64,000 bases of DNA from Deltaproteobacteria bacterium (GCA_009692615.1 SHYW01000004.1:8273-72272), one strand, 5' to 3'. Positions 15,524 to 63,824 are shown, counted from the stretch's first letter. The notes: a model not told the origin generated them from the letters alone. Numbers and translations are program-made.

Positions 15524-15600
15524 GTGTAGGGGCGACCGGCGGTCGCCCTTGCCCTTACCCTCACCCCTGCCCTCTCCCATCGGAATGGGCGAGGGTGAAG
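15524..15600. repeat. Composite REP: gtgtaggggcgaccggcggtcgccc followed by ccctcacccctgccctctcccatcggaatgggcgagggtgaag
   Basis: Both halves are palindromic. The second motif recurs at 48711-48740 and 60951-60980. It contains the ATG (15585) that I use as the start of the next gene. Confidence 0.8.
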
Positions 15601-16607
15601 AAAAGAAGAACAGGCCGAGTAACTCCGTTGAGACCAACAAGAAGCGAAATTTATTTTTCTACCTTGTCGCCGCCACTTCGTTACTTTTCGGCACCGCGTC
15701 GCCGCAAGCGCAAACCGAGCGCGTCACGCTCGGTTACCCGGCGACCGCGATGAGCCACTTTCCCGCTTTCGTCGGCCGCGAGTTTGGGCAATTCAAAGAT
15801 GAAGGACTCGACGTCCAGCTCGTGCGGGTGTCGGGCAACGTCGTCGTCGCGGCGCTGCTCTCTGGCGAGCTCGGTTACACCACCTCCGGCGACGGCACCA
15901 TTCGCTCGGCGGTCTTGGGATTGCCGATCAAAATGCTCGCCGCCATCGGCGTCAAACCGTCCTTGTCATTGATCGTGCGACCGGAAATCAAAACCGTCGC
16001 CGACTTGAAAGGCAAAGCCATCGCGATTTCCACGCCGGGAACGACGACGGACTTCACCGCCCGCGAGATCGTCAAACATTACGGCTTGAATCCCGATCGC
16101 GACATCACGACCATTGGCATGGGCGATCAACCCCAACGCATGGCCGCCATGCAGAGCTGCACCGCCGCCGGCGCCATCGTCACGCCGCCCAACGATCTCA
16201 AGGCCGAAGCTCAAGGATTTCGATTATTAGTATTTTCCGGCGATATCATGGAGGACAGCATTCTCGGCGTGCTCGGCACCAGCGAGCGGCGCATCAAAGA
16301 ACGGCCCGACCAAGTCAAAAAAATGGTCCGCGCCATCGTCAGATCGCTGATCTTCATCCGCCAACAGCCCGAGAAGGTGATCAACTTCGCCCAACGCTTT
16401 TGGAAACTCGACCGCAAGCAGGCGGAAAAAAGCTACGAGCTGATCGTCAAAACCATGAGCCGCGACGGCAGCGCCACCGACGCGGCGATGCAGGCGGCGA
16501 TCTATCAAGCCAAGGTAACGAGCAAGATTCAGAAAGATATTTCGCCGGCCCAAGCGGTCGATTTCAGCTTCCTTCAGCAAGTTCAACAAGAACTCAAGCT
16601 TCGCTAA
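15585..16607 (+). CDS. NMT1/THI5-like (NitT/TauT-family) ABC substrate-binding protein
   Basis: The track ORF is 15513-16607. The first in-frame ATG after the REP-encoded junk is at 15585. It has a signal-like LFFYLVAATSLLFGTASPQAQ and the core LGYPATAMSHFPAFVGREFGQFKDEGLDVQLV. Confidence 0.75.
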   Translation: MGEGEEKKNRPSNSVETNKKRNLFFYLVAATSLLFGTASPQAQTERVTLGYPATAMSHFPAFVGREFGQFKDEGLDVQLVRVSGNVVVAALLSGELGYTTSGDGTIRSAVLGLPIKMLAAIGVKPSLSLIVRPEIKTVADLKGKAIAISTPGTTTDFTAREIVKHYGLNPDRDITTIGMGDQPQRMAAMQSCTAAGAIVTPPNDLKAEAQGFRLLVFSGDIMEDSILGVLGTSERRIKERPDQVKKMVRAIVRSLIFIRQQPEKVINFAQRFWKLDRKQAEKSYELIVKTMSRDGSATDAAMQAAIYQAKVTSKIQKDISPAQAVDFSFLQQVQQELKLR

Positions 16608-16651
16608 TCAGAAATTTACTTAACTACTATAAAGTCAGAAAGTTATTCCAA

Positions 16652-17422
16652 ATGATTCAAGGTATCGATCACCTGGTCATCGTGGTCAAAGATCTCGACC
16701 AAGCTGCGAGGGACTACCAGCAACTCGGCTTCACCGTGGTGCCCGGCGGGCAGCACCCGGTGGGCAGCCATAACGTCTTGATCTCCTTCGCCGATGGTTC
16801 CTATCTGGAAATCATCGCCTTCTATCGCGAGGCGATCGATCATCGTTGGTGGGATCCGCTGGCGAAGGGCGAACGGCTGGTCGACTTTTGTTTTCAAACC
16901 GACGACCTCGGCGGCGACACCAAGAAACTCCAAGACGCCGGCGCAGCGATCAACAACCCCGTGCCCTGGTCGCGCAAGCGGCCGGATGGTTTTGAATTGA
17001 AATGGCTCTTGTCGCTGGCCACTGGCAGCCATCGCGGTGTCGCGCCATTTTTGATCGAAGATGTCACCGCGCGCAGCGAACGGGTGCCCCAAGAGTTCCA
17101 ACATCAAAATGGCATCACCGGCATCGAAAAACTGATCGTCTCGGTGGGCGAACTCGGCCCGATCGAAAAGTGGTACGGCGCGCTGCTCGGCGCCAAGGGC
17201 CAAGCCGTGCGCAACGATGAGCTAAAAGCCGATGGCCTCGGCTTTCAAACCGGCGCGCAACGCATCGACTTTCTAACCCCAAATGACGTCTCCAGCCCGC
17301 TGGTAAATTGGCTGCGCGAGTTCGGTCCCTCGCCCTACGCTGCGCAATTGAAAACCAGCAACCCATCGGAGCAATCCTTCGACCTAGGTTTGACCCACGG
17401 CGCCAACTTGGTGGTTACCTAA
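16652..17422 (+). CDS. VOC family protein (glyoxalase-like domain, two modules)
   Basis: ATG at 16652 inside track ORF 16400-17422. MIQGIDHLVIVVKDLDQAARDYQQLGFTVVPGGQHP..GSYLEIIAF. Confidence 0.75.
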   Translation: MIQGIDHLVIVVKDLDQAARDYQQLGFTVVPGGQHPVGSHNVLISFADGSYLEIIAFYREAIDHRWWDPLAKGERLVDFCFQTDDLGGDTKKLQDAGAAINNPVPWSRKRPDGFELKWLLSLATGSHRGVAPFLIEDVTARSERVPQEFQHQNGITGIEKLIVSVGELGPIEKWYGALLGAKGQAVRNDELKADGLGFQTGAQRIDFLTPNDVSSPLVNWLREFGPSPYAAQLKTSNPSEQSFDLGLTHGANLVVT

Positions 17423-17495
17423 AGCCAGCCGATCGATTACAATCGTAGTTAAGATTCTTTACCGAACGGCGTCTAACTGGCAAGGAGGCAGGCAA

Positions 17496-18681: not shown

Positions 18682-19869
18682 TCAACGGTGAATCGCCAAG
18701 AACGCAAAAACCTTGGCCGCGTCGAGCACGCTATTCAGCGGAACCAGATCATGATCGGTGTGCTGAAACTTAATATGCCGTGAGCCGTAGTTGATCGCCT
18801 GAATGCCGCGGTGATTGAACAAACCGGTGTCGTTGGCGGCGGTGGAATATGAAAACTTCGGCTCATGGTTGAGCATCGTGCGAATCCCCTGCTCCAAGAC
18901 CTGCACCACTTCGGCATCGCGCTTCACTTCACTGGGATACATAAAATCGCGCGGCGACACTTCGATCTCGTAGGGTTCGATGGTGCCGATGGCGTCGCGC
19001 ATCTGCTGCACCGCTTTGGCCGGATCGTCGCCGGGCAGTAAGCGGCGGTCGAACATGATGCGGCATTCGCTCTGAATCGTGTGCGTCGCCTTGGGAAAAC
19101 TCTCGATCGCATTGGTGGTCAAACTGACGTCGCCGAGATCGGCGTGGGATCGTTCTTCGGGAAACGGCATCAAGGGTTTCAACCGCTCCAACACAAGCAT
19201 GGCGCCCTCGATGGCGTTGACGCCCTCCCACGGCCGGCTGCTGTGCGCCTGCTTGCCTTTGACGGTCACCAGCACGTCGACTCTACCTTTGTTGCCCAGT
19301 TGAATTTCCGGCGGCCCGTCGATGATGCACCAGTCGGCCTCGACGCTGCCATGATCGAGCACGTAAGCGAGAGAATCATGCTTGCCGGTCTCGCCCGCGG
19401 TGCTGACGACGAAATAAAGATCGCTCGGCAGCTCGACTTTGTTGACGCCGAGAAAACGCACCGCCGCCATCATCGCCGCCAAACTACCCTTCTGCTCGCA
19501 GGCGCCGCGGCCCCAGACGCATTGGCCGGAAAGTTTGTAGGGCGTGCCGTCGATGACTTCACCCGAATAGGGATTCTCCATCGTACTCGGCGCCGCGCAC
19601 ATGGCATAGCCCACCAGCATCAAGCGGTCCTGGGAAGAGCGGCCGCGCAGCCGTAGTATCAGATTGCCCATCTTGTCGATGGCGGGATGAAGACCGGCCT
19701 GCTCAAGCTCCGGTTTGACCACATCGGTGATCAGCGCCAACACCTGCGGCTCGGCTTCGAGCAGCCGGGTCTGCGGACTGGCATGCTGGACGAGTTTAAC
19801 CGTGAGCCGTTTGACCTCATCGTAACTCAGATGCTTTTCGATTAATTTTTTCGCCGTGCCGTCATCCAT
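18682..19869 (-). CDS. M20-family metallopeptidase (ArgE/DapE/amidohydrolase-like)
   Basis: 395 aa. It contains GRGACEQKGS, VVSTAGETG and GKQAHSSRPWEGVNA, which are M20 catalytic and dimerisation-domain features. Confidence 0.75.
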   Translation of the reverse strand: MDDGTAKKLIEKHLSYDEVKRLTVKLVQHASPQTRLLEAEPQVLALITDVVKPELEQAGLHPAIDKMGNLILRLRGRSSQDRLMLVGYAMCAAPSTMENPYSGEVIDGTPYKLSGQCVWGRGACEQKGSLAAMMAAVRFLGVNKVELPSDLYFVVSTAGETGKHDSLAYVLDHGSVEADWCIIDGPPEIQLGNKGRVDVLVTVKGKQAHSSRPWEGVNAIEGAMLVLERLKPLMPFPEERSHADLGDVSLTTNAIESFPKATHTIQSECRIMFDRRLLPGDDPAKAVQQMRDAIGTIEPYEIEVSPRDFMYPSEVKRDAEVVQVLEQGIRTMLNHEPKFSYSTAANDTGLFNHRGIQAINYGSRHIKFQHTDHDLVPLNSVLDAAKVFAFLAIHR

Positions 19870-19900
19870 CCTACTCGTGCCTCACGCCTCAAGCCTAATT

Positions 19901-21619
19901 TTAATGCCCCTCGAAGGTGCCGGCGGCCTTGCCAACTTTTCGCGCGATCACCACCAGCACGATGCACACTACACTGACAATCAGCGCCAAGGAACACATG
20001 GGGCCGAGATTGCCATCGACGTAGAAATGGTAGAGCAGCGGTCCCAACGGTTCGGCGCCCGGCGAATAGAGAAAGACCGAGGTGCTGAACTCGCGCAAAA
20101 AAATCGTCGCCAGGATAATCCATCCGGCGATGAACCCCGGCCGTAGCAGCGGCAAGAGAATACGCCGAAAGGTCGTCAAAAAGCTCGCGCCGCAAGCCAT
20201 CGACGCCTGCTGCAAGTCGTCGTGCAATTGCACGATCGTACTGGTCATGGTGCGCAAACCGTAGGGCAAGAACCGGGTAATGTAACCGATCAGCAAGATC
20301 CACAAAGTGCCGTAAATCGGTAGCGGTATGTAAACGTAAGTCCAAAGCAGACCGATGCCCAATGCCGTGCCGGGAAACGCCCATGGAATAAACGTCATCG
20401 CTTCGATCAAACCGCGGCCTCTAGCTTTGCTCTTAGTCGTGACCCACGCCGTCAGAGCGGCGAGCAGCATGCACAAGGTCGCGCCACCGACCGAAAGCAT
20501 CAAGCTATTTTGCAAGGCCCGATAGGTGCGCGAGTCGGTGAAGTTGGCGCGATAGTTGTCGAGCGTCAAAAGCTCCCAGGTCTTGGCGCTCGGCACGTGG
20601 ATGTAAGAGATAAACGAAACATAGATCATCACCATGAACGGCAGCGCGACGATCAGCAGCAGGATCAAGCTCGCCACCAGCGATGCCGCCCAGCGCCACT
20701 TACCCAGATCGATGATCATCGGCCGATAGCCGCGGCCGGTCACCGTGACGTAGCGCTCAGAGCGCGCGGTCAAGCGGCGATAGAAATACACGAACAGCAT
20801 GGTGATGAACAGCAGCGACACGCCATAAGCGGCGGCGAGATTTTGATTGGGCGGAAAGGCGCCCACCGCTTCGCGATAAATTTTTGTCGTAAACACTTCG
20901 ATCCGCGCCGGTAACGCAATAATCGCCGGCGTGTCGAAGCTTTCGATAGCGCGGACGAAGTTGAGCATCGCCGAAGCCAACAACGCCGGCCGGACGATGG
21001 GAATCGTAATGCGCCAAGCGATCTGCAAATTGCTCGATCCAGCCACCCGCGCGGACTCTTCTAGCGAAGGGTCCATGGAGTATAGCGCCGCCGAAATCAT
21101 CAAAAACGCCAGCGGCACGGTGATCAAAGCTTCGACATACATCATGCCCCAAAGGGAATAGAGATTGAGCGGCGCTTGCGCGAGATCGAAGAGCTGCATT
21201 AGCAAACGGTTGATCAAGCCGGTGCGCGGGCTCAGCAACACGGTCCAGGAGACGGCCAACATCACCGGTGGAAAAATATTCGGTACGATGGCGGTCAACT
21301 CGAACAGTTTGCGAAACGGCGCATTGGTGCGGATCGAGATCCACGCCAGGATCGCCGCCAACGCTGTCGCCAATAGCGCCGAGCCGCCGGCGAAGATGAA
21401 GGAATTGAACAGCAACTGATAGGTTAACGGATCGGAATAAGCGCTAACGTAATGGGCCAGGGTAAAGCCGCCGGGCACACCCAACGGTTTATCGCGGAAG
21501 CTGCCATAGAATAGCATCAAGGTTGGCGACAGACTTAGATAAGCGATCACCAGACCGATGCCCCAAACCACGCCGAGCTGGGGATCGCGGCGAAACGCGC
21601 CAAGGAACCGGGAAATCAT
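19901..21619 (-). CDS. Fused two-domain ABC transporter permease (iron(III)/thiamine-type, FbpB-like)
   Basis: The track ORF runs to 21706 but would include a terminator hairpin. I prefer the ATG at 21619 with RBS gagggcagg. It has about 12 TM segments and two EAA-like loops (EESARVAGSS; QQASMACGAS). Confidence 0.8.
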   Translation of the reverse strand: MISRFLGAFRRDPQLGVVWGIGLVIAYLSLSPTLMLFYGSFRDKPLGVPGGFTLAHYVSAYSDPLTYQLLFNSFIFAGGSALLATALAAILAWISIRTNAPFRKLFELTAIVPNIFPPVMLAVSWTVLLSPRTGLINRLLMQLFDLAQAPLNLYSLWGMMYVEALITVPLAFLMISAALYSMDPSLEESARVAGSSNLQIAWRITIPIVRPALLASAMLNFVRAIESFDTPAIIALPARIEVFTTKIYREAVGAFPPNQNLAAAYGVSLLFITMLFVYFYRRLTARSERYVTVTGRGYRPMIIDLGKWRWAASLVASLILLLIVALPFMVMIYVSFISYIHVPSAKTWELLTLDNYRANFTDSRTYRALQNSLMLSVGGATLCMLLAALTAWVTTKSKARGRGLIEAMTFIPWAFPGTALGIGLLWTYVYIPLPIYGTLWILLIGYITRFLPYGLRTMTSTIVQLHDDLQQASMACGASFLTTFRRILLPLLRPGFIAGWIILATIFLREFSTSVFLYSPGAEPLGPLLYHFYVDGNLGPMCSLALIVSVVCIVLVVIARKVGKAAGTFEGH

Positions 21620-21660
21620 CGCCTGCCCTCGAGTTGCGCATGAATGTAGAGTTGCATAAC

Positions 21661-21700
21661 CAAAACTAAGAAGGGCCAGCGCTATGGCCGGCCCTTCTTT
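21661..21700 (-). terminator. Putative intrinsic terminator after the substrate-binding protein gene
   Basis: On the minus strand it reads aagaagggccggccatagcgctggcccttctt followed by agttttg. The stem is GC-rich and the U-tract is short. Confidence 0.45.
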
Positions 21701-21729
21701 ATTCACTAATCAATGGCGCTTTTCAACGA

Positions 21730-22743
21730 TTACTTTGCTGCGGCGAAGATGTCGCGAAAGGTGCCGCTCATGAGCTTCTTGAACTCGTCCTCTGAGGGAT
21801 TGTCCATGAACACCATGCGCGGCGCGACCTTTTCGGCGTCTTTAATCGGCGGATAAACGCCCGGCGCCAAGACAAATTCGCCATCCTCGGCGATTTCCTT
21901 TTGCCCTTCGACGGAGCAGGCAAAATCGATGTAGAGCTTAGCGGCATTAGCTCGTGTCGACTTGGCGCTAAGACTCAAGTAATTGGGATCGGTCAGATAC
22001 CTATCCATCGGGATGAAGTCCACCGGCCCTTTGTATTGCTTGATGTACTTGATGTAAGTGATGCCCAACGCGGCTTCGCCTTTGATCACGGTGGTGGTCA
22101 CTGGAGCCAGAGATTCGACTAGGATGGGATTCTGCTTGGCCAGCGCTTTCACATAATCCAACCACTTGTCGCCCTTGAATTCTTTGCGCCGCAGGTTCCA
22201 GAGAAATTGCGCCGTGGTGGTGTGGCGCGTCGGATCGGGAATGGAAATTTTGCCGCTCCATTTAGGATTTAACAAATCGTCGAACGTCTTGGGCAAGTCC
22301 GCCGCTTTAACCAACTCGGTGTTGAAGAGAATGCTGATCGGCAGCACCCGCCAGGGCGTGATCAAACCGTCTTTCTCTTTGTACTGAGCGGGAAATTTCT
22401 CCGACGACGGCGGCACGAACTTCTGAAAGAGACCCTCGCCTTTCATGATCAACTGCACGCCGCGGTTGCCCTCGGCGATATCGAAACCGGGCCGGCCGGC
22501 GCGCCACTCGGTCAGCGCGCGCTCGGACACTTGAGTCGATGAACCGCGCCAGTATTCAACGTCGATGCCGTATTTCTTTTTGAACGCTTGATGCAGCCCC
22601 TCCATCGCTTGTGGCACGACGGAGCCATAGACCACCACCTTGCCTTCCTTCTTGGCGGCGTCGAGGTTGGCGGGCTGCGCCGAAGCAGTTGCGATGCGCA
22701 ACAGCAGGAAAACCGAAAGTAATAATAGTTTAGTAAATTTCAT
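21730..22743 (-). CDS. Family-1 extracellular solute-binding protein (Fe3+/AfuA-like ABC SBP)
   Basis: ATG at 22743 with RBS ggagga. It has the signal MKFTKLLLLSVFLLLRIATASA, then AKKEGKVVVYGSVVPQAMEGL..KKYGIDVEYWRG. Confidence 0.8.
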   Translation of the reverse strand: MKFTKLLLLSVFLLLRIATASAQPANLDAAKKEGKVVVYGSVVPQAMEGLHQAFKKKYGIDVEYWRGSSTQVSERALTEWRAGRPGFDIAEGNRGVQLIMKGEGLFQKFVPPSSEKFPAQYKEKDGLITPWRVLPISILFNTELVKAADLPKTFDDLLNPKWSGKISIPDPTRHTTTAQFLWNLRRKEFKGDKWLDYVKALAKQNPILVESLAPVTTTVIKGEAALGITYIKYIKQYKGPVDFIPMDRYLTDPNYLSLSAKSTRANAAKLYIDFACSVEGQKEIAEDGEFVLAPGVYPPIKDAEKVAPRMVFMDNPSEDEFKKLMSGTFRDIFAAAK

Positions 22744-22930
22744 CGCATCCTCCGACTCAATCAACTCGGCATTTCGCGATCGGGGTATGAACCCCGCTCG
22801 CGACCAAAGGGGATGCTCGCCCCCTTTGGAAACCCCATTTAGTTGTGCCCGCCGCAAGCAGCGGGCAATATTAGATTTAAACAAAAAACTACCGACGCGC
22901 TCTGGCTAAGTCAAGCCGTCGGCTGAAAAG

Positions 22931-24022
22931 CTACTTGGCGATGAACAACTGGCGAAACTCGGCCTGGAGCTTTTGCAATTGTTCGGCGCTCGGATCTTCT
23001 AACAGTTGCAGATTAGCCATGATCCGCTCGGCGCCTTTGATCGCCGGAAAGACTCCCGGCGCTAAAACGAATTCGTAGGTCTCGGAAACTTTTTTCTGCC
23101 CCTCGGGCGAGCAGAGATAATCGATCAAGAAGCGCGCGGCATTAGGATTGACCGCCTTCGCGCTAATCGCCGCATCGCTCGGATCGGCGAACACTTGCTC
23201 GATGGGCGCGAAACCGATGGGCCCTTTGGTCTGCGGCACATATTGAATGTAAGAAATGCCGAGAGCGGCTTCGCCGCGGACGATGGCGTTGGGCACGGAC
23301 GAATAGGACTCAACCAGCAACGGCTTTTGTTTGGCGAGTGCGCGCACGAAGTCGAGCCACTTGTCGCCTTTGATTTTCTGCAGGTTCCATAAGAATGTCG
23401 CCGTGCTGGCGTGGCGCGAAGGATCGGGCAGAGAAATTTTTCCCAGCCACTTGGGATCTAGCAGGTCGTCCAAACTTTTCGGCACGTCGTTACCTTTCAC
23501 TAAATCGGTGTTGGTAAGAATGCCCACGGGTGTAACCCGCCAAGCGGTCAACTGACCGTCTTTATCCTTGAACTTGGCGGGAAAATTTGCCGCGCTCGCC
23601 GGCGTGAACTTCGCGTAAACGCCATCGGCCTTACCCAACGCCAACGGACCGCGGGCACCGATCACCATGTCGAAACCAGGTTTACCGGCGCGCCATTCGG
23701 TCAGCACGCGGTCGATGAGTTTGGTCGCGTCGCCGCGCCAGTACTCGATATTGACGCCGTACTTGGCTTCAAAGCCCTTCTCGATGAGCGACATCACCTG
23801 GGGAATGATGGTGCCGTAAACGTTGACCTTGCCTTCCTTCTTAGCCGCTTCATGGCTCACACCCTGAGCTGAAACCTGTGCCGTCGGACCAAGAAGAATG
23901 CAAAGCAAAAATAAAAATGCATAACGCCCAACTGGTTGTCGGAGCCAAGTTACCTTCCCCCTTTGAAAAAGGGGGATTGAGGAGAATTTTCCTTGCACGA
24001 TAACGAAATTTTTCATAAACAC
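22931..24022 (-). CDS. Family-1 extracellular solute-binding protein (paralog of 21730-22743)
   Basis: It contains AKKEGKVNVYGTIIPQVMSLIEKGFEAKYGVNIEYWRG. The start is uncertain because the 5' region crosses a small hairpin (ccccctttgaaaaaggggg). Confidence 0.7.
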   Translation of the reverse strand: MFMKNFVIVQGKFSSIPLFQRGKVTWLRQPVGRYAFLFLLCILLGPTAQVSAQGVSHEAAKKEGKVNVYGTIIPQVMSLIEKGFEAKYGVNIEYWRGDATKLIDRVLTEWRAGKPGFDMVIGARGPLALGKADGVYAKFTPASAANFPAKFKDKDGQLTAWRVTPVGILTNTDLVKGNDVPKSLDDLLDPKWLGKISLPDPSRHASTATFLWNLQKIKGDKWLDFVRALAKQKPLLVESYSSVPNAIVRGEAALGISYIQYVPQTKGPIGFAPIEQVFADPSDAAISAKAVNPNAARFLIDYLCSPEGQKKVSETYEFVLAPGVFPAIKGAERIMANLQLLEDPSAEQLQKLQAEFRQLFIAK

Positions 24023-24059
24023 CTCTTGGACTATCCAGTTAAAATTGACAATCTAATTC

Positions 24060-25043: not shown

Positions 25044-25053
25044 AATCTTGCTC

Positions 25054-26160: not shown

Positions 26161-26360
26161 GGCGATGTCTAAACCGGCGACAACTTGGAATTGTCCGCTG
26201 CGCTGGTTTTTCTTCGCGTCATAGCGGCGCAGGTCGGTATCCATCTTCCTTCGTTGCCAACGCACCACCACCCCTGGATGCCGGCCTGCGCCGGCATGAC
26301 CAATACGCGGATAACCACGCGACGTGTGCAATCCTTCATAATTTGAGACCGCGACAAGAA

Positions 26361-27515: not shown

Positions 27516-27596
27516 TTAAAGCGACAACCTCGGTAACGCATAGACATCTACTTCTGGATATCAGCACCAACAACCCACAGCGCTCTCCGAATCTTA

Positions 27597-27691: not shown

Positions 27692-27721
27692 GGAATCGAT
27701 GCGCGAGCCACGGCCCGAAAA

Positions 27722-53733: not shown

Positions 53734-53755
53734 AATCGATTTATGAAAAAACGTA

Positions 53756-54400: not shown

Positions 54401-54483
54401 CCCCCGGCAGGAAGATTCGACATCTTAACCGCTGACTTTTTAGATCTTGCCAAGCAACTTGGCGTTTAACCGAAGGAGCTATC

Positions 54484-55479
54484 TTGTTTGCACGAGCTTT
54501 GACAATCGTTTTAATTCTAGCTTTCTCCGTCCTCGGACTAGGCCGCGCAGAAGCCCAGCGCCTGCGCGCCGCCAGCGGCGGGCTTTCGGTGATCCATTCG
54601 CTGCTCTGGGTCACCTACGACCAGAAGCTTTTGAAAAAGTACGGATTCGATTTGGAATACATCGCCATCGAGAACGGCACGGTGGGCATGCAGGCATTGA
54701 TTGCCAACGAAGCGCAGTTTCTTTTTTCCACCTCGTCCCTCGCCGTGAGCGCCAACCTACGAGGCTCGGACATCGCCGTGGTCGGCGGCGGATTGAACTT
54801 CATTCCCGACAAACTGATCGTCCGACCGGAGATCAAGCAGCCGGAAGATCTCGCCGGCAAACGTTTGGCGATCAGCCGCTTCGGCTCGTCGTCCGAAGTC
54901 AGCGCCAAGCTCACGCTGGAAAAAGTCGGCGTCAAACCGGAAAGTGTTTCGTTGATTCAGCTAGGCGGCGTTTCCACGCGCCAAGCGGCATTGATGGCCG
55001 GCCAAGTCCAAGCGACGATTTTGAGCGATCCCCAGGCGACGGCGGCGGTCAATGCCGGCATGAAACTTTGGGTCGACTTATCCGAGAGCAAATGGGGCCT
55101 GCCGCGCTTTTGCTTCAACTGCTTCATGGCGAAGCGGAGCTTTCTCGAATCGAATCGCGCCGCCGCCATCGGCTTTCTCAAGGCGGTGATCGAAGGACTC
55201 TATCTGCTTAAAAAAGACAAACCTCTCGGCGTACGGCTGATCAAGAAATATTTGCGTCTGAACGACGAAGCGGCGTCCATCGGTTACGACTTCTATATCG
55301 CCAAACATGGCGAAGGTCTGCTCAGTCTGCCGGAGCGCAAGGGAATGGAATTTGTCATCGCCGAAACCGCCAAAACCAATCCCGCCGCGGCCAAGGCGAC
55401 GCCGGAAAGTCAGCGCCTGGTGGAAGGAAGCTTGCTAGATGAGATTAAAGCCAGCGGCTTTGTCGAGCGCTTCAAGTAA
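54484..55479 (+). CDS. NMT1/THI5-like (NitT/TauT-family) ABC substrate-binding protein
   Basis: TTG start with RBS aaggag 6 nt upstream. It has the signal ALTIVLILAFSVLGLGRAEA and the core LKKYGFDLEYIAIENGTVGMQALIANEAQF. Confidence 0.75.
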   Translation: MFARALTIVLILAFSVLGLGRAEAQRLRAASGGLSVIHSLLWVTYDQKLLKKYGFDLEYIAIENGTVGMQALIANEAQFLFSTSSLAVSANLRGSDIAVVGGGLNFIPDKLIVRPEIKQPEDLAGKRLAISRFGSSSEVSAKLTLEKVGVKPESVSLIQLGGVSTRQAALMAGQVQATILSDPQATAAVNAGMKLWVDLSESKWGLPRFCFNCFMAKRSFLESNRAAAIGFLKAVIEGLYLLKKDKPLGVRLIKKYLRLNDEAASIGYDFYIAKHGEGLLSLPERKGMEFVIAETAKTNPAAAKATPESQRLVEGSLLDEIKASGFVERFK

Positions 55480-55588: not shown

Positions 55589-56902
55589 ATGCAGTTGAAT
55601 CGAGAATCGCTCAAAGATATCTTGATCACCGTCGTCCTGCCGCTGCTCGCGGTGACCGGCGCATTCTGGGTCGCCGCCAAATTCGTCAAGCCCGCGCCGC
55701 CCGATAGTTTTGTTATGACTACCGGTGCCGATGGCGGCGCTTATCATCTGTTCGCGCAACGCTACCGCGACATTCTCAAACGGGAAAAGATCACGGTTAC
55801 GCTGAAACCGTCGGCGGGCTCCATCGACAATTTGCAGCGCTTACAGAAGAGCGACAGCGGTTTTGACGTTGGCTTGATTCAGGCCGGCGTCGTTCTCGGT
55901 GAACCGCCCGCGGGCCTGCGTTCCCTCGGCGCGGTGGCTTACGAACCGTTGTGGATTTTTTATCGCGGCAAAGAAGACCTCGACAAACTGAGTCAGCTCG
56001 CCGGCAAGCGCGTCGCCGTCGGCGCCGAAGGCAGCGGCACCCGCGCCCTCGCGCTGCAATTATTAAAAATTAGCGGCATCGACGGCTCGACCAGCGAACT
56101 GTTACCGATTGGCGGCAATGAAGCGGTAAGCGCGCTCATCGAAGAATCGGTCGACGCCGCGCTGTTGGTCGCGTCAGCCGACGCGCCCACAGTGCAAACC
56201 TTGGCCAAAGCCAAAGACATCAAGCTGGCAAATTTAATCCAGGCCGAAGCGTTCACGCGCCGCTTCCCTTATCTGACCTCCATGCAGTTGCCGCGCGGAG
56301 CCGTCGACATCGCCGCCGACTTGCCGGCGCGCGACGTCACCTTGATCGCCACCACCGCCAACTTGATCGTCAAAGAAGATTTTCACCCGGCGTTGGGCTA
56401 CTTGCTGCTGCAAGCCGCCAGCGAAGTCCACGGCCGCTCCGGCATGCTGCAAAAGGCCGGCGACTTTCCCGCCGCCAAGGAAATTGAATTCGTTCTCGCC
56501 GACGAAGCCAAGCGCTTTTACAAAACCGGCACGCCGTTCTTGCAGCGCTACTTGCCCTTCTGGGTGGCGAATTTAATCGAACGCATGGCAGTGTTGTTGC
56601 TGCCGCTGGTCGCCGTGCTCTTGCCGCTGTTTAAAATTCTGCCGGCGCTGATCCAATGGCGCAACAAATCGCGCCTGTTCAAATGGTACGGCGAGTTGAA
56701 ATATTTGGAAGCCCAGGCCGCGGCCGACCCCGAGGTCGCGCAACTCGGCAACTATCTCCATCGTCTCGACGATATCGAAATCGGCATCAACAATACCCGG
56801 GTGAGCGCAAACTATTCCGACTACGTTTACAACCTGCGTCTCCATGTCAACCTCGTGCGTGATCGGCTGCACAGGATTACCCAACAAAGCCAAACCGGCT
56901 AG
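55589..56902 (+). CDS. TAXI-family TRAP-type solute-binding protein with N- and C-terminal membrane anchors
   Basis: 437 aa. FVMTTGADGGAYHLFAQRYRDIL..SAGSIDNLQRL. The C-terminal TM block is FWVANLIERMAVLLLPLVAVLLPLFKILPALI. Confidence 0.7.
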   Translation: MQLNRESLKDILITVVLPLLAVTGAFWVAAKFVKPAPPDSFVMTTGADGGAYHLFAQRYRDILKREKITVTLKPSAGSIDNLQRLQKSDSGFDVGLIQAGVVLGEPPAGLRSLGAVAYEPLWIFYRGKEDLDKLSQLAGKRVAVGAEGSGTRALALQLLKISGIDGSTSELLPIGGNEAVSALIEESVDAALLVASADAPTVQTLAKAKDIKLANLIQAEAFTRRFPYLTSMQLPRGAVDIAADLPARDVTLIATTANLIVKEDFHPALGYLLLQAASEVHGRSGMLQKAGDFPAAKEIEFVLADEAKRFYKTGTPFLQRYLPFWVANLIERMAVLLLPLVAVLLPLFKILPALIQWRNKSRLFKWYGELKYLEAQAAADPEVAQLGNYLHRLDDIEIGINNTRVSANYSDYVYNLRLHVNLVRDRLHRITQQSQTG

Positions 56903-57502: not shown

Positions 57503-58719
57503 CTATTCCGCCAAACGCTTAAGGCGCGCGCCGAGGAAGATGTAACCGACCAGCGCCAAGACGATCGCACCCGCGGCGATGGCGATGGGCGCGCTGGTCC
57601 ATTCGGCGACGAATCCTGCTTGCATGCCGCCCAACTCGCGCAAGCCGCCGCCGGTGAGACCGTAAAATCCCGACACTCGCCCACGATACGATTCCTCGAC
57701 GCGTAACTGAATCGATGTATTGAGCAAGGTTTCGAACACCGTGCTGAGCGCGCCGACGACGACCAACGTGGCAAACGCAAGCCAAGCAACCGTGTTAAGC
57801 GCGAAGAAGCACAGGCAGATCGAAAACGCCAACAACAGCGCAACCAAGATCGGTCGGCGTGATCGCACGCGGCCGACTGACGCCAAGGTCAATGAACCGA
57901 TGATCGTGCCAAGGCCGGGACCGGCGGAGATGAAACCGAATCCCGACGCGCCGACGTGCAGAACTTCCTTGGCGACCACCGGCAGCAAAGTAATGTAGGA
58001 GCGGCCAAAAATATTGAACAGCGCCGATACCGAGAGAAAAGTCATGATGATGCGCTCGCCGCGCACGTAGGTAAACGCCGGCTCAAACTCTCCAACACGC
58101 TGGACTTCGGCGCCTCGACATTTTTCGGGACATGCATGCGCAGCAGCGCGCCGATGACCGCGAGATAGCTGATAACGTTGGCGTAGAAACAGCCGTCGAT
58201 GCCGATGTAAGCGACGGAAACGCCGACCAGACTCGGACCGATCAATCCCGCGCCGTTCCAAGTGAGTGCGTTTAAAGCGATGGCATTGACCAACACGTCG
58301 CGATCGACCAACTGCGGCAGCAGCGCTTGGCGCACCGGCTGTTCGAAGGCCCAGGTCGTCGAAGTGATCGCGCCAAGCACGAAGATATGCCAGACGCGGA
58401 TCGAATCGGTCGAGATCAGCAGCGCCAACACCAGCGCGGTCAGCGCGGCGATGATTTGAATCGCCAGCAACACCTTGCGCCGGTCGATACGATCGGACAT
58501 GACGCCGCCGAGAATAAAAAAGCTCAGCAGCAAGACCATGCGCAGCGAACTGAACAGACCAAGATAAAGCGGCGACGCGGTGAGATCGAAGAGCAGCCAG
58601 CCCATGGCGATGCTCTGCATCCATGAGCCGACGTTGGAGACGAAGTAGCTCGACCAAAACCAAAAATAGTTGGGATAACTGAGTGCGCGAAAGGCGCCGG
58701 AGCTGCGATCGAATTTCAA
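57503..58719 (-). pseudogene. MFS transporter (EntS/MFS_3-like) disrupted by a frameshift near 58075-58100
   Basis: The N-half is track ORF 58042-58719 (..SNVGSWMQSIAMGWLLFDLT..). The C-half sits in another frame of ORF 57503-58663 (..AFTYVRGERIIMTFLSVSALFNIFG..). The junction reads ..SSVLESLSRRL vs VGEFEPAFTYVRG. Confidence 0.7.
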
Positions 58720-58782: not shown

Positions 58783-59757
58783 TCACGGAACCTTGTAGCC
58801 CAACTCCTTCGCCACTTCTCGGGCGATGCGGTCGTCGGCGATCTCGTCGAAGGCGACCTTGCGATCGGTGAATTGACCGGCGGCTTGGAGCGACTTCATA
58901 ATCAAGTCCATCCCCTCGTGCGTCGGCACGCCGCTACCGCTGACGGTCTTTTTAAGAGCGTCGTAAGTGTCCTCCGCCGCCTCTTTATCGACCTGCAAGT
59001 ATTTCAACATCAGCGCCGTGGCTTTTTCCTTGGAGCGCAGCACTTCTTGCTTGGCCAATTGCAGCGAGCGCAGCACGCGCTTTACTTCGTCGGGACGGTT
59101 GCGGAGCGTCGACACCATGGTGGTCAAGCCGCCCAGCGGCATTTTTACTTTCGAGCCGACATCGAGCACTTCGCGAAAACGTTTCTTCTTAGCGTAAAAA
59201 TCGAAGGGCGGGCTGAACATCGCCGCCTCGACAGTGCCGGTTTCCAACGCCGGCAGCATCTGCGCCGCACCGAGCACGACGTAAACGAAATTCTTCGGAT
59301 TCTCCCCGGCGGCTTCGAGGGCGATCTGCAGGGCGACATGTGACGTGCCGCCGAGCCCCGTGATACCGATTTTCTTGCCGCGCAGATCGCGCAGATTCGG
59401 TATCTCGGGGCGGGCCATCAGGGAATAAATCAACTGGTCCGAGGCAAACCACACGCCGCGCGACTGCATGCCGCGCAAAGTGGCGGTTACGGAAGCCGGC
59501 CCGACGCCGGTGAAATATTGAATCTCGTTGGCCATCATCGCCATATTGCCGATCTGCGAACGGATCTGCACGATCTCGACATGCAACCCGTTCTCCTCGA
59601 AAATCTTCCATTGAATTCCGCCGTACAAAGCCAAACAGCAAATACCGCCGCTCGGATAGGCGACACGGATTTTACGCAGCTCCTGCGCGCTCGCCGCCGC
59701 GGCGAACCCGCCAAGCAAGGCGATGACGATCGCCCGACGAAACAATTTTCTGTGCAT
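58783..59757 (-). CDS. NMT1/THI5-like (NitT/TauT-family) ABC substrate-binding protein
   Basis: 324 aa with the signal AIVIALLGGFAAAASA. IRVAYPSGGICCLALYGGIQWKIFEENGLHVEIVQI. Confidence 0.75.
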   Translation of the reverse strand: MHRKLFRRAIVIALLGGFAAAASAQELRKIRVAYPSGGICCLALYGGIQWKIFEENGLHVEIVQIRSQIGNMAMMANEIQYFTGVGPASVTATLRGMQSRGVWFASDQLIYSLMARPEIPNLRDLRGKKIGITGLGGTSHVALQIALEAAGENPKNFVYVVLGAAQMLPALETGTVEAAMFSPPFDFYAKKKRFREVLDVGSKVKMPLGGLTTMVSTLRNRPDEVKRVLRSLQLAKQEVLRSKEKATALMLKYLQVDKEAAEDTYDALKKTVSGSGVPTHEGMDLIMKSLQAAGQFTDRKVAFDEIADDRIAREVAKELGYKVP

Positions 59758-59993: not shown

Positions 59994-60944
59994 ATGCGCA
60001 GCAAGATTTTCTTTCTGGCCCTGCTCCTGCTCTTTGACAGTTCCCCAGCGTTCGCCCAACTGAAAAAAGTTCGCTTCTCGGTGAGCGCCGCATCCATCGC
60101 CGAACTGCCCTTTCGCATCGCCCATGTCAAAGGCTTCTATCGCGAAGAAGGGCTCGACGTCGAAGTGATCTTCATTCGCGGCGCGGTGGGCATGCAGGCG
60201 TTGCTCGGCGGCTCGGTGGATTTCACCTCGGCGTCGGGCTCGACCATCGCGGCGGCTGTGCGCGGTATCCCAGTGAAATTAGTTTTCATCGCCTCGGCCA
60301 AACCGCAGTTCGACATGGTCGCGCAAAAAGAGATTCGCTCGATGAACGACCTCAAAGGCAAATTCGTCGGCATCTCGTCGCGCGGCGGCGCCATCGATTT
60401 GCTTACTCAACTGATGGTCCAGAAACATGGCTTAACGCCGAACAAAGACGTCACCAGCCTGGTCATCGGCGGGCAAGAAGACACGGTGCTGGCGCTGCGC
60501 GCCGGCCGCATCGCCGCGGCGTTATTGACTCCGCCCCGGCCGTTGATATTGCAGCGCGAAGGTTTTAACCGCATCGGCTATTCCGGCGACTACATGCCGA
60601 CCTACCCGAGCGGCGGCATCGGCGTCACCGATGAGACGATCAAGAGCAAAACGCCGGAACTGCAAGCCTTCGTCAAAGCCAGCGTGCGCGGCTTGCAATA
60701 CGCCCGGCAAAATCGCGCCGACGCGAAAAAGCTCGTCGCCGATTATTTCGCCATCAAAGACGCCGCCCTGGCCGAGCAATTTTTCGACTTGTACTTGAGC
60801 CGCCTGCCGGTGAACGGTTCCGCCGACGAAGCCTGGATGAAAGGCGCCATCGAGTTCACTCAAAAGAGTTTAGGCGACGCATCCAAGGAAGCGAGCATGA
60901 GTCAAGTTTTCGATTTCAGTTTCGTGAATCGTGCGGTGCGATAA
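59994..60944 (+). CDS. NMT1/THI5-like (NitT/TauT-family) ABC substrate-binding protein
   Basis: ATG at 59994 (MRSKIFFLALLLLFDSSPAFA) within track ORF 59958-60944. The core is VRFSVSAASIAELPFRIAHVKGFYREEGLDVEVIFI. Confidence 0.75.
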   Translation: MRSKIFFLALLLLFDSSPAFAQLKKVRFSVSAASIAELPFRIAHVKGFYREEGLDVEVIFIRGAVGMQALLGGSVDFTSASGSTIAAAVRGIPVKLVFIASAKPQFDMVAQKEIRSMNDLKGKFVGISSRGGAIDLLTQLMVQKHGLTPNKDVTSLVIGGQEDTVLALRAGRIAAALLTPPRPLILQREGFNRIGYSGDYMPTYPSGGIGVTDETIKSKTPELQAFVKASVRGLQYARQNRADAKKLVADYFAIKDAALAEQFFDLYLSRLPVNGSADEAWMKGAIEFTQKSLGDASKEASMSQVFDFSFVNRAVR

Positions 60945-60950
60945 AGATTG

Positions 60951-61034
60951 CCCTCTCCCATCGGAATGGGCGAGGGAGTCGGAATCGATTTTGTTCCCTC
61001 GACCGCAACGCGGGAGAGGGTTAGGGTGAGGGCA
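60951..61034. repeat. Paired REP hairpins (ccctctcccatcggaatgggcgagggag ... ccctcgaccgcaacgcgggagagggttagggtgaggg)
   Basis: The motif set is the same as at 15553-15600 and 48643-48740. Confidence 0.8.
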
Positions 61035-61054
61035 GCAAAATAAAGATTCTGAGT

Positions 61055-62674
61055 ATGCCAACCAGCCCCACACACACTCCCGTTCTCATCGCCGGCGCCG
61101 GCCCAGTTGGTCTCGCCCTCGCCAGTGAACTCGCTTATCGAAATATTCGCTGCTTAGTCGTCGAACAAACCGACGGCAGCGTCGACTTTCCGACGACCAA
61201 CTTGGCCAACACCCGCACCGTCGAACACCTGCGCCGCTGGGGCCTCGCCGATCGTATGCGCTACCAATCCGGCTATCCCACCGACTATCCGCGCAATTAT
61301 TTATTCGTCACGCGCATGGATGGCCATCTGATCGCCCGCTTCGATCATCCGGCCAACGGCGCGCCCGACGCGCGTTCGCCCTACAGCCCCGAAGGCCGGT
61401 TGTGGATTTCCAAACCCTACTTCGATCCGGTTTTGCGCGCCCATGTCGCGACGCTGCCGCAGGTCGAAGTGCGCTACGAGACTTCGTTCGAATCGTTTCA
61501 GCAAAACGACAACGGCGTCAGTGCCAAAGTCCTCGACAAAAAAACCGGTAGGAGCGAAATCATCGAAGCCGATTATCTCGTCGGCTGCGACGGCGGCCGG
61601 AGCAACATTCGCCGCGCCATCGAGATAAAATACGCCGGAGTTTTTTCCCAAGGCATGAACGTCGCCGTGCTGTTTCGCTCGCCGTTGTTGAAATTAATTA
61701 CCCACGGCCCGGCGGTGCAGTATCAAATCATCAACGCCCAGTTGAACGGCGCCATCGCCGCCGTCGACGGCAAAGAACTTTGGCGTTTGAACATCCGCAA
61801 CGTCAAACAAGAGCAGATCGATGGCTTGAACGCGCCGGAAAAACTGAGCTTCGCCCTCGGGCCGGACATTCCGTTTGAGTTGCTCGCCGTGCGCCCCTGG
61901 ACCGGCCACTGCGTGGTCGCCGACAGTTACCAAAAAGGCCGAGTCTTTCTCGCCGGCGACGCGGCGCATTTGAACTGGCCCGCCGGCGGCTTCGGCATGA
62001 ACACCGGCGTCGGCGACGCCGTCGACATCGGCTGGAAGCTCGCCGCCGTGCTCCAAGGCTGGGGCGGCGCGAATTTGTTAAATAGCTACACCGCGGAAAG
62101 AAAACCCATCGCCATGATCAACGTCAACGAAGCCGCCGAAATGCGCGCCAGCTTCGACAACCAAACGCCCTTCGCGCCGCAAATCGGCGACGACAGCGAC
62201 GAAGGTCAAGCGCTGCGCGAAAAAGCCCGCGCCGCGATCATGCGCACCCGGGCGAAAGAATTTCAGCACGACTCGGTCGGCATCGAACTCGGCTACCGCT
62301 ACGAGAACTCACCGATCTGCGTCGCCGACGGCACGCCCGCGCCGGAACTCGACCACGGCCTCTACGTCGCATCAACTTGGCCCGGCGCCCGCGCGCCCCA
62401 CGTCCAACTAAAAGACGGCCGCTCGACGCTAGATCTTTATGGCAAAACTTTTGTTCTGTTGAATTTCTCCGCCACGAACACGACCACGATCACGAACAGC
62501 GCCAAGCAAGTCGGCTTGCCGCTGGAAGTAATAGCCATCGATGAACCGACGGTACGCGAAATCTACGAACACGATTTAGTCCTAGTCCGCCCCGACGGCC
62601 ACGTCGCCTGGCGAGGCAATTCAATTCTAGCGAACCTCACCAAAATCATCGACAAAGTCCGCGGCGTAATATGA
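61055..62674 (+). CDS. FAD-dependent aromatic-ring monooxygenase (PheA/TfdB-type flavoprotein hydroxylase)
   Basis: 539 aa. It has VLIAGAGPVGLALASELAYRNIRCLVVEQ (GxGxxG), DYLVGCDGGRSNIR, and FLAGDAAHLNWPAGGFGMNTGVGDAVDIGWKL. Confidence 0.85.
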   Translation: MPTSPTHTPVLIAGAGPVGLALASELAYRNIRCLVVEQTDGSVDFPTTNLANTRTVEHLRRWGLADRMRYQSGYPTDYPRNYLFVTRMDGHLIARFDHPANGAPDARSPYSPEGRLWISKPYFDPVLRAHVATLPQVEVRYETSFESFQQNDNGVSAKVLDKKTGRSEIIEADYLVGCDGGRSNIRRAIEIKYAGVFSQGMNVAVLFRSPLLKLITHGPAVQYQIINAQLNGAIAAVDGKELWRLNIRNVKQEQIDGLNAPEKLSFALGPDIPFELLAVRPWTGHCVVADSYQKGRVFLAGDAAHLNWPAGGFGMNTGVGDAVDIGWKLAAVLQGWGGANLLNSYTAERKPIAMINVNEAAEMRASFDNQTPFAPQIGDDSDEGQALREKARAAIMRTRAKEFQHDSVGIELGYRYENSPICVADGTPAPELDHGLYVASTWPGARAPHVQLKDGRSTLDLYGKTFVLLNFSATNTTTITNSAKQVGLPLEVIAIDEPTVREIYEHDLVLVRPDGHVAWRGNSILANLTKIIDKVRGVI

Positions 62675-62708
62675 GCGTCATAGTTTTCATCCTAATCCGA
62701 TCCGACGT

Positions 62709-62808
62709 CCTTCCCCTTGACGGGGAAGGAATGAGCAAGGGGTGCGCAAAATATTTTAATAGCTTGCGCAGCACCCCTATCCTAACCTTCCACCGTCGAG
62801 GGGGAAGG
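62709..62808. repeat. Paired REP hairpins (ccttccccttgacggggaagg ... ccttccaccgtcgagggggaagg)
   Basis: The architecture is the same as at 27597-27691, with a variant stem sequence. Confidence 0.7.
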
Positions 62809-62825
62809 AATAAGATTCGAAATCA

Positions 62826-63824
62826 ATGAACAAACATATTCAAAACTTTTTACGGATCACGCTACTGCTCGGCGCCTTCGCATCTTCAACACACGCGGCG
62901 ACAAAAGTTTCTTTCCCCTTTACACCCATCAGCGCCGCCAGTTTGCCCTGGTGGATGGCCAAGGAATCGCACTTCTACGAAAAATACGGCCTCGACGTGG
63001 ACATGATCTACGTCGGCGCGTCGCCGGTGATCATCCAAGCGATGCTCGGCGGCCAAGCCTTCATCGGCGCCGGCGGCGGACCGCCGTTGGTCGGCAATGT
63101 TTTGCAAGGCGGCGACATCGTCCAGGTCGCCACCACCGTGCCCTACGCGATTCAATCGCTGATCGTCAAAGCGGAAATCAAAACGCCCACCGATTTGGCC
63201 GGTAAACGAATCGCCATCAGCCGCCTCGGCGCGATTCCCCATTTCACGCTCCAAGCGATCGTCAAAATGCACAACGTTCAAGGTATCAACATCGTACAAA
63301 CCGGCACGACCACGCAGGCGATCGCGAGTTTGTCCCAAGGCCTGGTCGACGGCATGATCACCTCGGCGCCGTTCACGTTTCGCATGATGAAAGATGGCTA
63401 TAGAGAACTGGTCGGACCAAAAGATTTCAAAAAAGCCGGCGTGGAATTTTTGATCCAAGGATTGGTCGCGCGCAAATCCATCGCCGCGAAAAACCGTGAA
63501 GCGACCGTCGCCATGATCAAAGCGACCATGGAAGGAATCAAACAAATCTTCGTCAACGAGAAGCTGACCAAGTCCGTGCTCGCCAAATACACCCGCCAAA
63601 CCGACCCAGAAATCCTCGATCAAACCTACAAATTCGCCCTCGATATTTTCGTCAAAGACCCAACCGTCACGCCCAGCTCGATCCAACCGATCGTGCAGCA
63701 GTCCGCGCAGTTCAACCTCGTCGACGCCAAAGCAGCCAACAGCACGCCGCTGAGCGCCTACTACGACAACGGCTATATCGAAGAGATAAAACGGAGCGGA
63801 TGGTTGGCGGAATTGTGGCGGTGA
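62826..63824 (+). CDS. NMT1/THI5-like (NitT/TauT-family) ABC substrate-binding protein
   Basis: 332 aa with the signal ITLLLGAFASSTHA. SLPWWMAKESHFYEKYGLDVDMIYVGASPVIIQAMLGG. Confidence 0.75.
   Translation: MNKHIQNFLRITLLLGAFASSTHAATKVSFPFTPISAASLPWWMAKESHFYEKYGLDVDMIYVGASPVIIQAMLGGQAFIGAGGGPPLVGNVLQGGDIVQVATTVPYAIQSLIVKAEIKTPTDLAGKRIAISRLGAIPHFTLQAIVKMHNVQGINIVQTGTTTQAIASLSQGLVDGMITSAPFTFRMMKDGYRELVGPKDFKKAGVEFLIQGLVARKSIAAKNREATVAMIKATMEGIKQIFVNEKLTKSVLAKYTRQTDPEILDQTYKFALDIFVKDPTVTPSSIQPIVQQSAQFNLVDAKAANSTPLSAYYDNGYIEEIKRSGWLAELWR

Follow-up and report, generated by a model that had tools for sequence, protein, structure and literature searches.

Receptor-rich catabolic clusters with few translocator genes in a 64-kb chromosomal segment of the Binatia lineage

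A stretch of 64,000 nucleotides assigned to a Deltaproteobacteria bacterium (GCA_009692615.1, SHYW01000004.1:8273-72272; hereafter the window, whose first letter is position 1) carries ten genes for substrate-binding proteins (SBPs), nine of them of the ATP-binding cassette (ABC) type, together with a single ABC permease and no ABC ATPase. Comparison with related loci (designated by L numbers) indicates that such SBP-laden catabolic clusters with few translocators are a genuine arrangement found throughout the lineage, and one whose type is familiar from other bacteria. The explanation that we favour, and with some reserve hold to be probable, is modular ABC import, in which the receptors are encoded within catabolic operons and a few shared translocators are encoded separately.

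The sequence-only reading had listed five NMT1-type SBPs, four family-1 Fe3+-type SBPs and one TAXI protein, and a profile scan of the open reading frames (ORFs) of the window bore out the whole list, as 10/10 called genes scored above the Pfam gathering thresholds of SBP families. Five proteins (NMT1_a to NMT1_e) matched NMT1 (PF09084) with 46-87 bits against a cutoff of 20.5, and four (SBP6_a to SBP6_d) matched SBP_bac_6 (PF13343) with 56-82 bits against a cutoff of 24.6; their coordinates are given in Table 1. Among solved structures, those nearest to the SBP6 set (E = 1e-15 to 1e-12) are of Fe3+-binding proteins and of pyridoxal-5-phosphate-binding proteins. The nine ABC-type SBPs bear Sec-type signal peptides with AxA-like ends (AQA, AEA, SAQ, AFA and THA in the NMT1 set), and no lipobox cysteine was seen in their N-termini, which were read by eye; signal peptides and cleavage sites were judged in the same way from the N-terminal hydrophobic cores. 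Because the signal peptides are of the Sec type and devoid of a lipobox, these nine proteins should be periplasmic in a diderm cell. The starts called earlier at 15585, 59994 and, for the permease, 21619 are in-frame ATGs immediately ahead of the signal peptides. Pfam matches, signal peptides and gene context together uphold the view that the SBPs are genuine, exported and sited within catabolic clusters.

SBP genes account for 10 of the ~62 genes of the window, i.e. about one in six. Pairwise identity is 23-30% among the NMT1 proteins and 25-29% among the SBP6 proteins, the pair SBP6_a and SBP6_b (52%) being the exception. As identities outside this pair are only 23-30%, the receptors are old paralogues, not the product of recent tandem amplification.

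The sole BPD_transp_1 protein in the window, encoded by an ORF at 19901-21706 (minus strand), holds two such domains, which confirms that the fused permease (19901-21619) is the one ABC membrane component present. No ABC ATPase was found in the 64 kb by Pfam (~70 ORFs), by a six-frame scan for Walker A and LSGGQ motifs or with an ATPase hidden Markov model (HMM) run over every window ORF of at least 60 amino acids (aa), and no TRAP-type (tripartite ATP-independent periplasmic) membrane gene (DctQ/DctM) was matched by Pfam. Within the window none of the NMT1 SBPs adjoins a cognate permease and ATPase, and the SBP_bac_6 set has no complete cis transporter, since the permease accompanies SBP6_a and SBP6_b only. 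The absence of ATPase and TRAP genes noted earlier is thus true inside the 64 kb.

The fused permease is 75-88% identical in ~65 species-representative metagenome-assembled genomes (MAGs), mostly labelled Candidatus Binatia or "Deltaproteobacteria bacterium". Binatia are abundant, uncultured bacteria of soils and sediments, known from MAGs alone, and, judged by these matches, the source organism is a member of this lineage. A SAR202/Chloroflexi origin, to which the enzyme families had pointed, was rejected in view of the AxA signal peptides and of the Binatia/Deltaproteobacteria matches. Much of the window is syntenic with Binatia-like genomes; it is core chromosome and not a mobile island.

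At its right-hand edge the window ends 176 bp past the last SBP gene and 180 bp into a MetE-like gene. In L083 and L081 a minus-strand operon encoding an NMT1 SBP, a permease, an ATPase and a second permease (parts confirmed by Pfam) lies ~30-200 bp after the MetE-like gene, and in L090, which has no MetE-like gene, the same cassette directly follows NMT1_e. The best-matching permease locus comes from the same MAG as L169, a contig of 1.16 Mb whose gene order is NMT1_c (89% identity), then NMT1_d (90%), hydroxylase (85%), NMT1_e (86%) and the MetE-like gene, then permease, ATPase, permease and SBP. The cassette is present in 3/3 evaluable loci bearing NMT1_c, and also in L083; a cognate permease and ATPase adjoin the NMT1_c, NMT1_d and NMT1_e genes in L169, L083, L090 and L081. 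In the closest syntenic relatives it is positioned ~1.3 kb past the point that corresponds to the window end. As far as synteny can tell, the lack of ATPases in the right-hand cluster is probably an effect of where the window stops, so that this part of the earlier observation calls for correction, and it is likely that the cassette follows in this genome as well, in which case four or five SBPs of the cluster would share a single translocator. Where the cassette is present, four divergent SBPs are gathered around one NitT/TauT translocator, a gene arrangement which directly supports the notion of several receptors for one translocator. The earlier proposal of many receptors sharing few translocators fits these four loci, in each of which a single cassette, with an SBP of its own, lies beside NMT1_c, NMT1_d and NMT1_e.

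The left-hand cluster offers a different picture of the same separation. Here the fused permease belongs to an operon whose gene order recurs, at 65-95% amino-acid identity, in ~65 Binatia-like species; in relatives, the opposite strand beyond it carries a class II aldolase gene, a vicinal oxygen chelate (VOC) gene, NMT1_a where present, and the luciferase-like monooxygenase (LLM) gene LLM1, followed by UbiD. Motif and HMM searches found an importer-type ATPase adjoining the operon in 0/70 Binatia-like loci (946 kb). In the outgroup homologues, at ~60% identity, an ATPase (ABC_tran+TOBE_2), an SBP and the permease are encoded together in 9/9 cases (Burkholderiales, Betaproteobacteria and Tectomicrobia). 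Since the Binatia-like loci are without the ATPase and all nine outgroup loci have it, loss of the cis ATPase is a derived, lineage-wide trait. In its two EAA loops (LEESARVAGS...ITIPIVRPAL and LQQASMACGAS...RRILLPLLRPG) the Binatia permease hardly differs from its ATPase-linked outgroup homologues, and because these coupling loops are kept we infer that an ATPase encoded elsewhere docks on the permease. That the protein is highly conserved over its full length speaks for purifying selection. A 362-aa ATPase encoded ~5 kb from the permease in L038, L039 and L071 was considered as its partner and rejected; it is ~30% identical to the outgroup ATPase, has its own small permease and looks ModBC-like.

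SBP6_a is found in essentially all related loci and is the core receptor of this operon, with SBP6_b as an accessory one (21/44 related species, a clean ~1.1 kb indel). The enzymes encoded with it point to a probable substrate of the N-modified amino acid, dipeptide or opine-like kind. NMT1_a is likewise optional: only 6/29 related species have it, cleanly inserted as ~1 kb of DNA that separates LLM1 from the VOC gene. Both genes thus behave as modules of ~1 kb that are cleanly present or absent while the surrounding enzyme genes stay fixed. Modularity is likewise seen in SBP6_c and in the right-hand cassette, each of which some relatives lack. An orphan fused permease in L079 (6217-7980), from the same MAG as L011 and 35% identical to that of the window, lies between VOC and Amidohydro_2 genes with an enoyl-CoA hydratase gene flanking, and no SBP or ATPase gene occurs within 17.6 kb of it, a hint that ABC components are dispersed as a general feature of these genomes.

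Association of SBPs with particular enzymes was followed in a metagenome scan of 80 loci centred on the FAD-dependent hydroxylase. An NMT1_e orthologue lies directly 3' of the hydroxylase gene in 33/50 evaluable loci and an NMT1_d orthologue directly 5' of it in 19/53. Orthologues of SBP6_d abound (76-93% identity), and the unit formed by the HpcH/CitE-like lyase, a metallo-beta-lactamase (MBL)-fold hydrolase and SBP6_d is kept in L165-L168. The view that SBP/enzyme pairs are conserved as units therefore holds for NMT1_d-hydroxylase-NMT1_e and for HpcH-MBL-SBP6_d, but fails for SBP6_c and the CoA-transferase, as their genes are convergent and, in L165, L167 and L168, no SBP6_c separates the LOG-like gene from the CoA-transferase gene. 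An NMT1_b orthologue with 86% identity occurs in a similar neighbourhood in L168. The pairing of an SBP with an MBL-fold catabolic enzyme, reported earlier, is real, with the correction that the MBL partner is itself periplasmic; owing to its signal peptide, HpcH-MBL-SBP6_d looks like a periplasmic hydrolase combined with the receptor for its product. The remaining enzyme neighbours of the SBPs appear to be cytoplasmic.

An excess of SBPs over translocators recurs over ~1.5 Mb of related DNA. The loci centred on the hydroxylase (610 kb) gave a count of 121 NMT1-like ORFs versus 5 NitT-type permease ORFs and 19 ATPases, figures to be taken as a tendency and not as a genome-wide ratio. Only 2 of the 19 ATPases are of importer type. 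The others, considered as possible SBP partners near the hydroxylase, were rejected, as they belong to 228-aa/FtsX-type or ABC-2 exporter sets.

Taken together, these observations would fit an ordinary, largely syntenic Binatia chromosome whose ABC-importer genes are organised in a modular manner. NMT1/SsuA-like and Fe3+/PotD-like receptors would sit in catabolic operons whose substrates they presumably capture, and the membrane and ATPase modules would be few, separately encoded and shared. On the right, NMT1_c, NMT1_d, NMT1_e and probably the fourth, cassette-encoded SBP would deliver to one NitT/TauT translocator made of two permeases and one ATPase. On the left, a substrate derived from amino acids or resembling an opine would pass from SBP6_a and SBP6_b to the fused permease, which an ATPase from another place in the genome would energise. 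SBP6_c, SBP6_d, NMT1_a and NMT1_b would most likely dock on these or on distant translocators of the same families. What we infer is how SBPs and translocators pair, that an ATPase acts in trans, which ligands are bound and that this genome, too, has the cassette. A tentative and rather doubtful extension of modular import would be that ABC import is decoupled throughout Binatia, with dozens of receptors and stand-alone permeases, among them the fused ones of the window and of L079, run by very few trans multitask ATPases.

Several points weigh against modular import with shared translocators. A trans-acting ATPase for the fused permease was not identified, and no stand-alone importer-type ATPase was seen in the ~1.6 Mb sampled. 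The cassette is absent from L084, L088, L094, L104 and ~30 more distant loci, all of which keep hydroxylase-NMT1_e. The NCBIfam equivalog cutoffs (SsuA, TauA, PhnS and similar) were reached by no SBP: the NMT1 set scored 54-102 bits with SsuA_fam against a cutoff of 163.5 and stayed far under the cutoffs of TauA and SaoX, and the SBP6 set scored 52-83 bits with the PhnS/PhnS2 equivalogs against 393. The counting HMMs were built from proteins of the window and the cassette and may miss divergent BPD_transp_1 proteins, and the sampled loci, chosen around an SBP-linked gene and mutually syntenic, yield biased and non-independent counts.

It is necessary to consider whether the genome has a normal translocator complement, with a dedicated set for each SBP elsewhere, which 64 kb simply misses. 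The window does stop ~1.3 kb short of the position that a full ABC cassette occupies in L169, L083 and L081, and in L030, L033, L035 and L037 the permease operon has a complete NitT/TauT set ~8-9 kb away. However, the imbalance persists over the related DNA, the fused-permease operon is without a partner ATPase within ±10 kb in every Binatia-like locus reaching that far, the cassette is flanked by four SBPs and not by one, and SBP genes are gained and lost independently of translocator genes. We thus regard a sampling artefact as unlikely. Another explanation is that many of the orphan SBPs serve as periplasmic sensors, ligand buffers or chaperones. The sensor-like topology of the TAXI protein, which is never found beside transporter genes, would agree with it, as would SBP6_c, SBP6_d, NMT1_a and NMT1_b, which have no translocator in reach in any of the loci examined. 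On the other hand, Pfam matched no transcription factor, histidine kinase or chemoreceptor among the ~70 window ORFs scanned, the soluble SBPs share operons with catabolic enzymes of the cytoplasm, whose substrate has to be inside the cell, NMT1_c, NMT1_d and NMT1_e stand beside a translocator in relatives, and both NMT1 and SBP_bac_6 are classical ABC receptor families. Non-transport roles in general seem improbable to us; for the nine ABC-type SBPs the sensing or chaperoning functions raised by the sequence-only reading gained nothing supportive.

We know of no precedent for SBP-dependent transport by the major facilitator superfamily (MFS), and it is very improbable that the SBPs have switched partners and feed secondary carriers, such as neighbouring MFS proteins, in the manner of TAXI-GltS. 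TAXI SBPs can pair with a non-TRAP carrier (PMC12344293), MFS_a is kept next to HpcH-MBL-SBP6_d, and NMT1_c lies directly 5' of MFS_b on the same strand. Yet this last adjacency is not kept in L080, nor in L169, where hydantoinase genes are found instead, and SBP-MFS coupling through NMT1_c and MFS_b was rejected on this ground. Moreover, MFS_b is split or frameshifted, and MFS_a is divergently transcribed and suits the adjacent CoA-ester pathway. As for decay, i.e. the orphan SBPs and the ATPase-less operon being non-functional remnants of ABC systems, the split of MFS_b and a UbiD_C fragment (29434-30198) could be quoted in its favour, but every SBP ORF is intact and has a signal peptide. 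The orthologues are 70-95% identical over dozens of species (permease 75-88%, SBP6_d 76-93%, NMT1_e 70-89%), and because of this conservation we assume purifying selection and consider the decay reading excluded, granting it only the faintest probability.

Modular import is not without parallels. HisJ/LAO with HisQMP and the Aap/Bra systems of Rhizobium are ABC systems with more than one SBP. In Pseudomonas aeruginosa, several SBPs, DppA1-A5, serve the one translocator DppBCDF (PMC4206461). The Binatia loci resemble such multi-SBP systems in having several divergent receptors of the same family near to, or away from, one permease/ATPase set (four of NMT1 type in L169, L083 and L090). They differ in that the receptors are only 23-30% identical and lie in separate catabolic operons instead of one transporter locus, in that the families are NitT/TauT and Fe3+/PotD and the hosts uncultured Binatia, and in that the sharing is suggested by gene order.

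The orphan Bug/TctC receptors of the tripartite tricarboxylate transporter (TTT) family in Bordetella (PMC5812351), including Bug27/Bug69 (PMC11452294), had been named as a resemblance. The analogy is sound at the level of organisation, as in both cases the receptors far outnumber the membrane components and most receptor ligands are unassigned. It does not extend to family or energy coupling, since Pfam and NCBIfam found no TctC (Bug) domain in any of the ten SBPs, and ABC coupling contrasts with the secondary transport of TTT.

Sharing of an ATPase in trans is also familiar, from the multitask ATPases MsiK of Streptomyces and MsmX of Bacillus subtilis and from UspABC of M. tuberculosis, which is without an ATPase gene of its own. 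The left-hand operon is similar in being a conserved SBP and permease operon without an ATPase gene, with the EAA coupling loops kept. Unlike the known cases, which are CUT1 sugar importers of monoderms, it encodes a fused Fe3+/PotD/thiamine-type permease, which would depend on a putative trans ATPase; the permease and its SBPs fall into the Fe3+/PotD/PhnS-like group and not into the CUT1 carbohydrate-uptake family.

In the sulfonate systems ssuEADCB and tauABCD, an SsuA-like SBP goes together with an LLM monooxygenase and a flavin reductase. The window is alike in placing an NMT1/SsuA-family SBP beside an LLM gene (LLM1-NMT1_a) and in containing a flavin reductase gene (48033-48536). It is unlike these systems in the low SsuA_fam scores given above, in having no SsuC/SsuB nearby and in NMT1_a being optional, and for these three reasons the substrates are probably not alkanesulfonates. 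We found nothing specific in the literature on Binatia transporters or on NMT1 orphan expansions.

The TAXI protein is the least explained element of the finding. It had been described as membrane-tethered, which is correct, and hydropathy adds a second helix: an uncleaved N-terminal transmembrane (TM) segment (~7-30) is followed by a periplasmic TAXI domain, a second TM segment (~322-350) and a conserved cytoplasmic tail of ~90 aa. More than 3000 homologues of 435-490 aa match it with full-length coverage. Homologues with 72% and 57% identity are solitary in unrelated neighbourhoods, and TRAP membrane genes were absent within ±8 kb of the homologues in L162 (8001-9341), L163 (8001-9446) and L164, as they are in the window; the family thus lacks TRAP neighbours in three different contexts. 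Usual TAXI receptors are soluble, lipoproteins or N-terminally anchored and comprise 300-350 aa (PMC12344293). With the TAXI-TRAP and TAXI-GltS systems of the same report the protein shares a TAXI domain scoring over the NCBIfam cutoff and, as in the case of BP0403, the lack of adjoining TRAP membrane genes. It differs from them in its 437 aa, the helices flanking the domain, the ~90-aa tail and the lack of a consistently adjoining GltS or other carrier. From its predicted topology, this two-helix protein may be an SBP-domain sensor or regulator of an undescribed class rather than a transporter receptor.

Some further features of the window and its relatives deserve mention. MFS_b is called as the same two halves (N-terminal 225 aa and C-terminal 180 aa) in a second, independent assembly of this organism in ENA; the gene could be frameshifted or a pseudogene, or the MFS could really consist of two genes. 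A split MFS in L162 was examined as its counterpart and found not to be orthologous. In the permease operon, the opine dehydrogenase ORF taken at its longest (25054-26631, minus strand) overlaps the MR/MLE gene (26361-27515, minus strand) by ~270 bp. Its first Pfam domain sets in as late as residue 162, and the true start codon probably lies near 26350. Next after a UbiD_C-only ORF of 254 aa (29434-30198, minus strand) comes one of 168 aa, which begins with a membrane helix and matches nothing in Pfam (together spanning 28911-30198). A full-length UbiD gene is present at 12754-14325 (minus strand), and the UbiD_C-only gene and the 168-aa ORF are kept in several relatives, e.g. L004 and L046. 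Near-identical copies of the Binatia-type operon, with a permease ~75-85% identical, were also met in MAGs that bear the labels Chloroflexota, Verrucomicrobiota, Eisenbacteria, Udaeobacter, Bryobacteraceae and Acidiferrales (L003, L006, L007, L024, L030, L045, L061 and L067, mostly short contigs). Wrong binning or wrong labels would account for this, as might horizontal transfer.

Two tandem dual-specificity phosphatase-like genes of the PTP-NADK family (32909-34089, plus strand) lie between an amidohydrolase gene and the LOG/SLOG-family gene and are kept in L165 and L167. The catabolic clusters are broken by genes for a MazF/PemK toxin (8040-8468, plus strand), a 23S rRNA intervening-sequence protein (614-1063, minus strand) and a DUF6036 nucleotidyltransferase (46033-47600), as well as by several small unannotated ORFs, all of which are probably toxin-antitoxin-like accessory genes. 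It is unusual that 64 kb so rich in catabolic operons should show no recognisable transcription factor, histidine kinase or chemoreceptor among the ~70 ORFs scanned.

Table 1. Receptor, transporter and associated enzyme genes of the 64,000-nucleotide window
Feature	Position	Strand	Assignment and remarks
LLM1	14512-15510	+	Bac_luciferase, 157 bits (Pfam); directly 5' of NMT1_a; 73-95% identity in related loci
NMT1_a	15513/15585-16607	+	Pfam NMT1, 76 bits; signal peptide ...SPQAQ|TE; between LLM1 and VOC gene
VOC (Glyoxalase_3)	16400-17422	+	130 bits, domain from residue 89; true start probably near 16660; 3' of NMT1_a
Catabolic and uptake operon	18682-28834	-	M24 peptidase, MR/MLE enolase, opine dehydrogenase, LLM2, SBP6_b, SBP6_a, fused permease, M20 peptidase (Pfam)
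Fused ABC importer permease	19901-21619	-	Two BPD_transp_1 domains (Pfam)
SBP6_a	21730-22884	-	Likely start 22743; Pfam SBP_bac_6, 75 bits; signal peptide; Fe3+/PotD-type
SBP6_b	22931-24022	-	Pfam SBP_bac_6; Fe3+/PotD-type; second receptor of permease operon
SBP6_c	35409-36416	+	Pfam SBP_bac_6; Fe3+/PotD-type; monocistronic
MFS_a	39455-40657	-	Pfam MFS_1, 168 bits; divergent from HpcH-MBL-SBP6_d, position kept in L165-L168
HpcH/CitE-like lyase-MBL-SBP6_d unit	40638-43784	+	Pfam; kept in L165-L168
MBL-fold hydrolase	41792-42724	+	Sec signal peptide MKFKLPLLLAAVSLFTMGAAA
SBP6_d	42738-43784	+	Pfam SBP_bac_6; Fe3+/PotD-type
M24_b-HAD_b-NMT1_b run	52585-55479	+	Pfam; co-directional
NMT1_b	54484-55479	+	Pfam NMT1
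TAXI protein	55589-56902	+	437 aa; Pfam NMT1_3, 79 bits; NCBIfam TRAP_TAXI (TIGR02122), 86.3 vs 84.35
MFS_b	57503-58719	-	Pfam; split into ORFs 58719-58042 and 58045-57503 with ATGA overlap; directly 3' of NMT1_c
NMT1_c	58783-59757	-	Pfam NMT1; 89-95% identical orthologues in L080, L081, L090, L169
NMT1_d	59958/59994-60944	+	Pfam NMT1
NMT1_d-FAD hydroxylase-NMT1_e unit	59994-63824	+	Pfam; synteny in metagenome loci
FAD-dependent aromatic-ring hydroxylase (FAD monooxygenase)	61055-62674	+	Pfam
NMT1_e	62826-63824	+	Pfam NMT1
Meth_synt_2 (MetE-like) gene start	63821-64000	+	Overlaps NMT1_e stop (GTGA); window ends inside; blastn/blastp to L083 10844-12019 and L169 10001-11152

Our findings do not overturn current models of ABC transport. 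If receptors do travel with catabolic operons and translocators are shared, annotation that relies on complete ABC operons would underestimate the substrate range of Binatia, and units such as NMT1_d-FAD hydroxylase-NMT1_e and the periplasmic MBL-SBP6_d pair would provide handles for substrate discovery, e.g. by SBP ligand screening. The class-wide loss of the cis ATPase in Binatia, set against Burkholderiales, would constitute a clean comparative case for the evolution of ATPase sharing outside sugar importers. Should the doubtful extension to Binatia-wide decoupled import prove true, it would carry the MsiK/MsmX principle from CUT1 systems to Fe3+/PotD- and NitT/TauT-type importers, in a diderm lineage.

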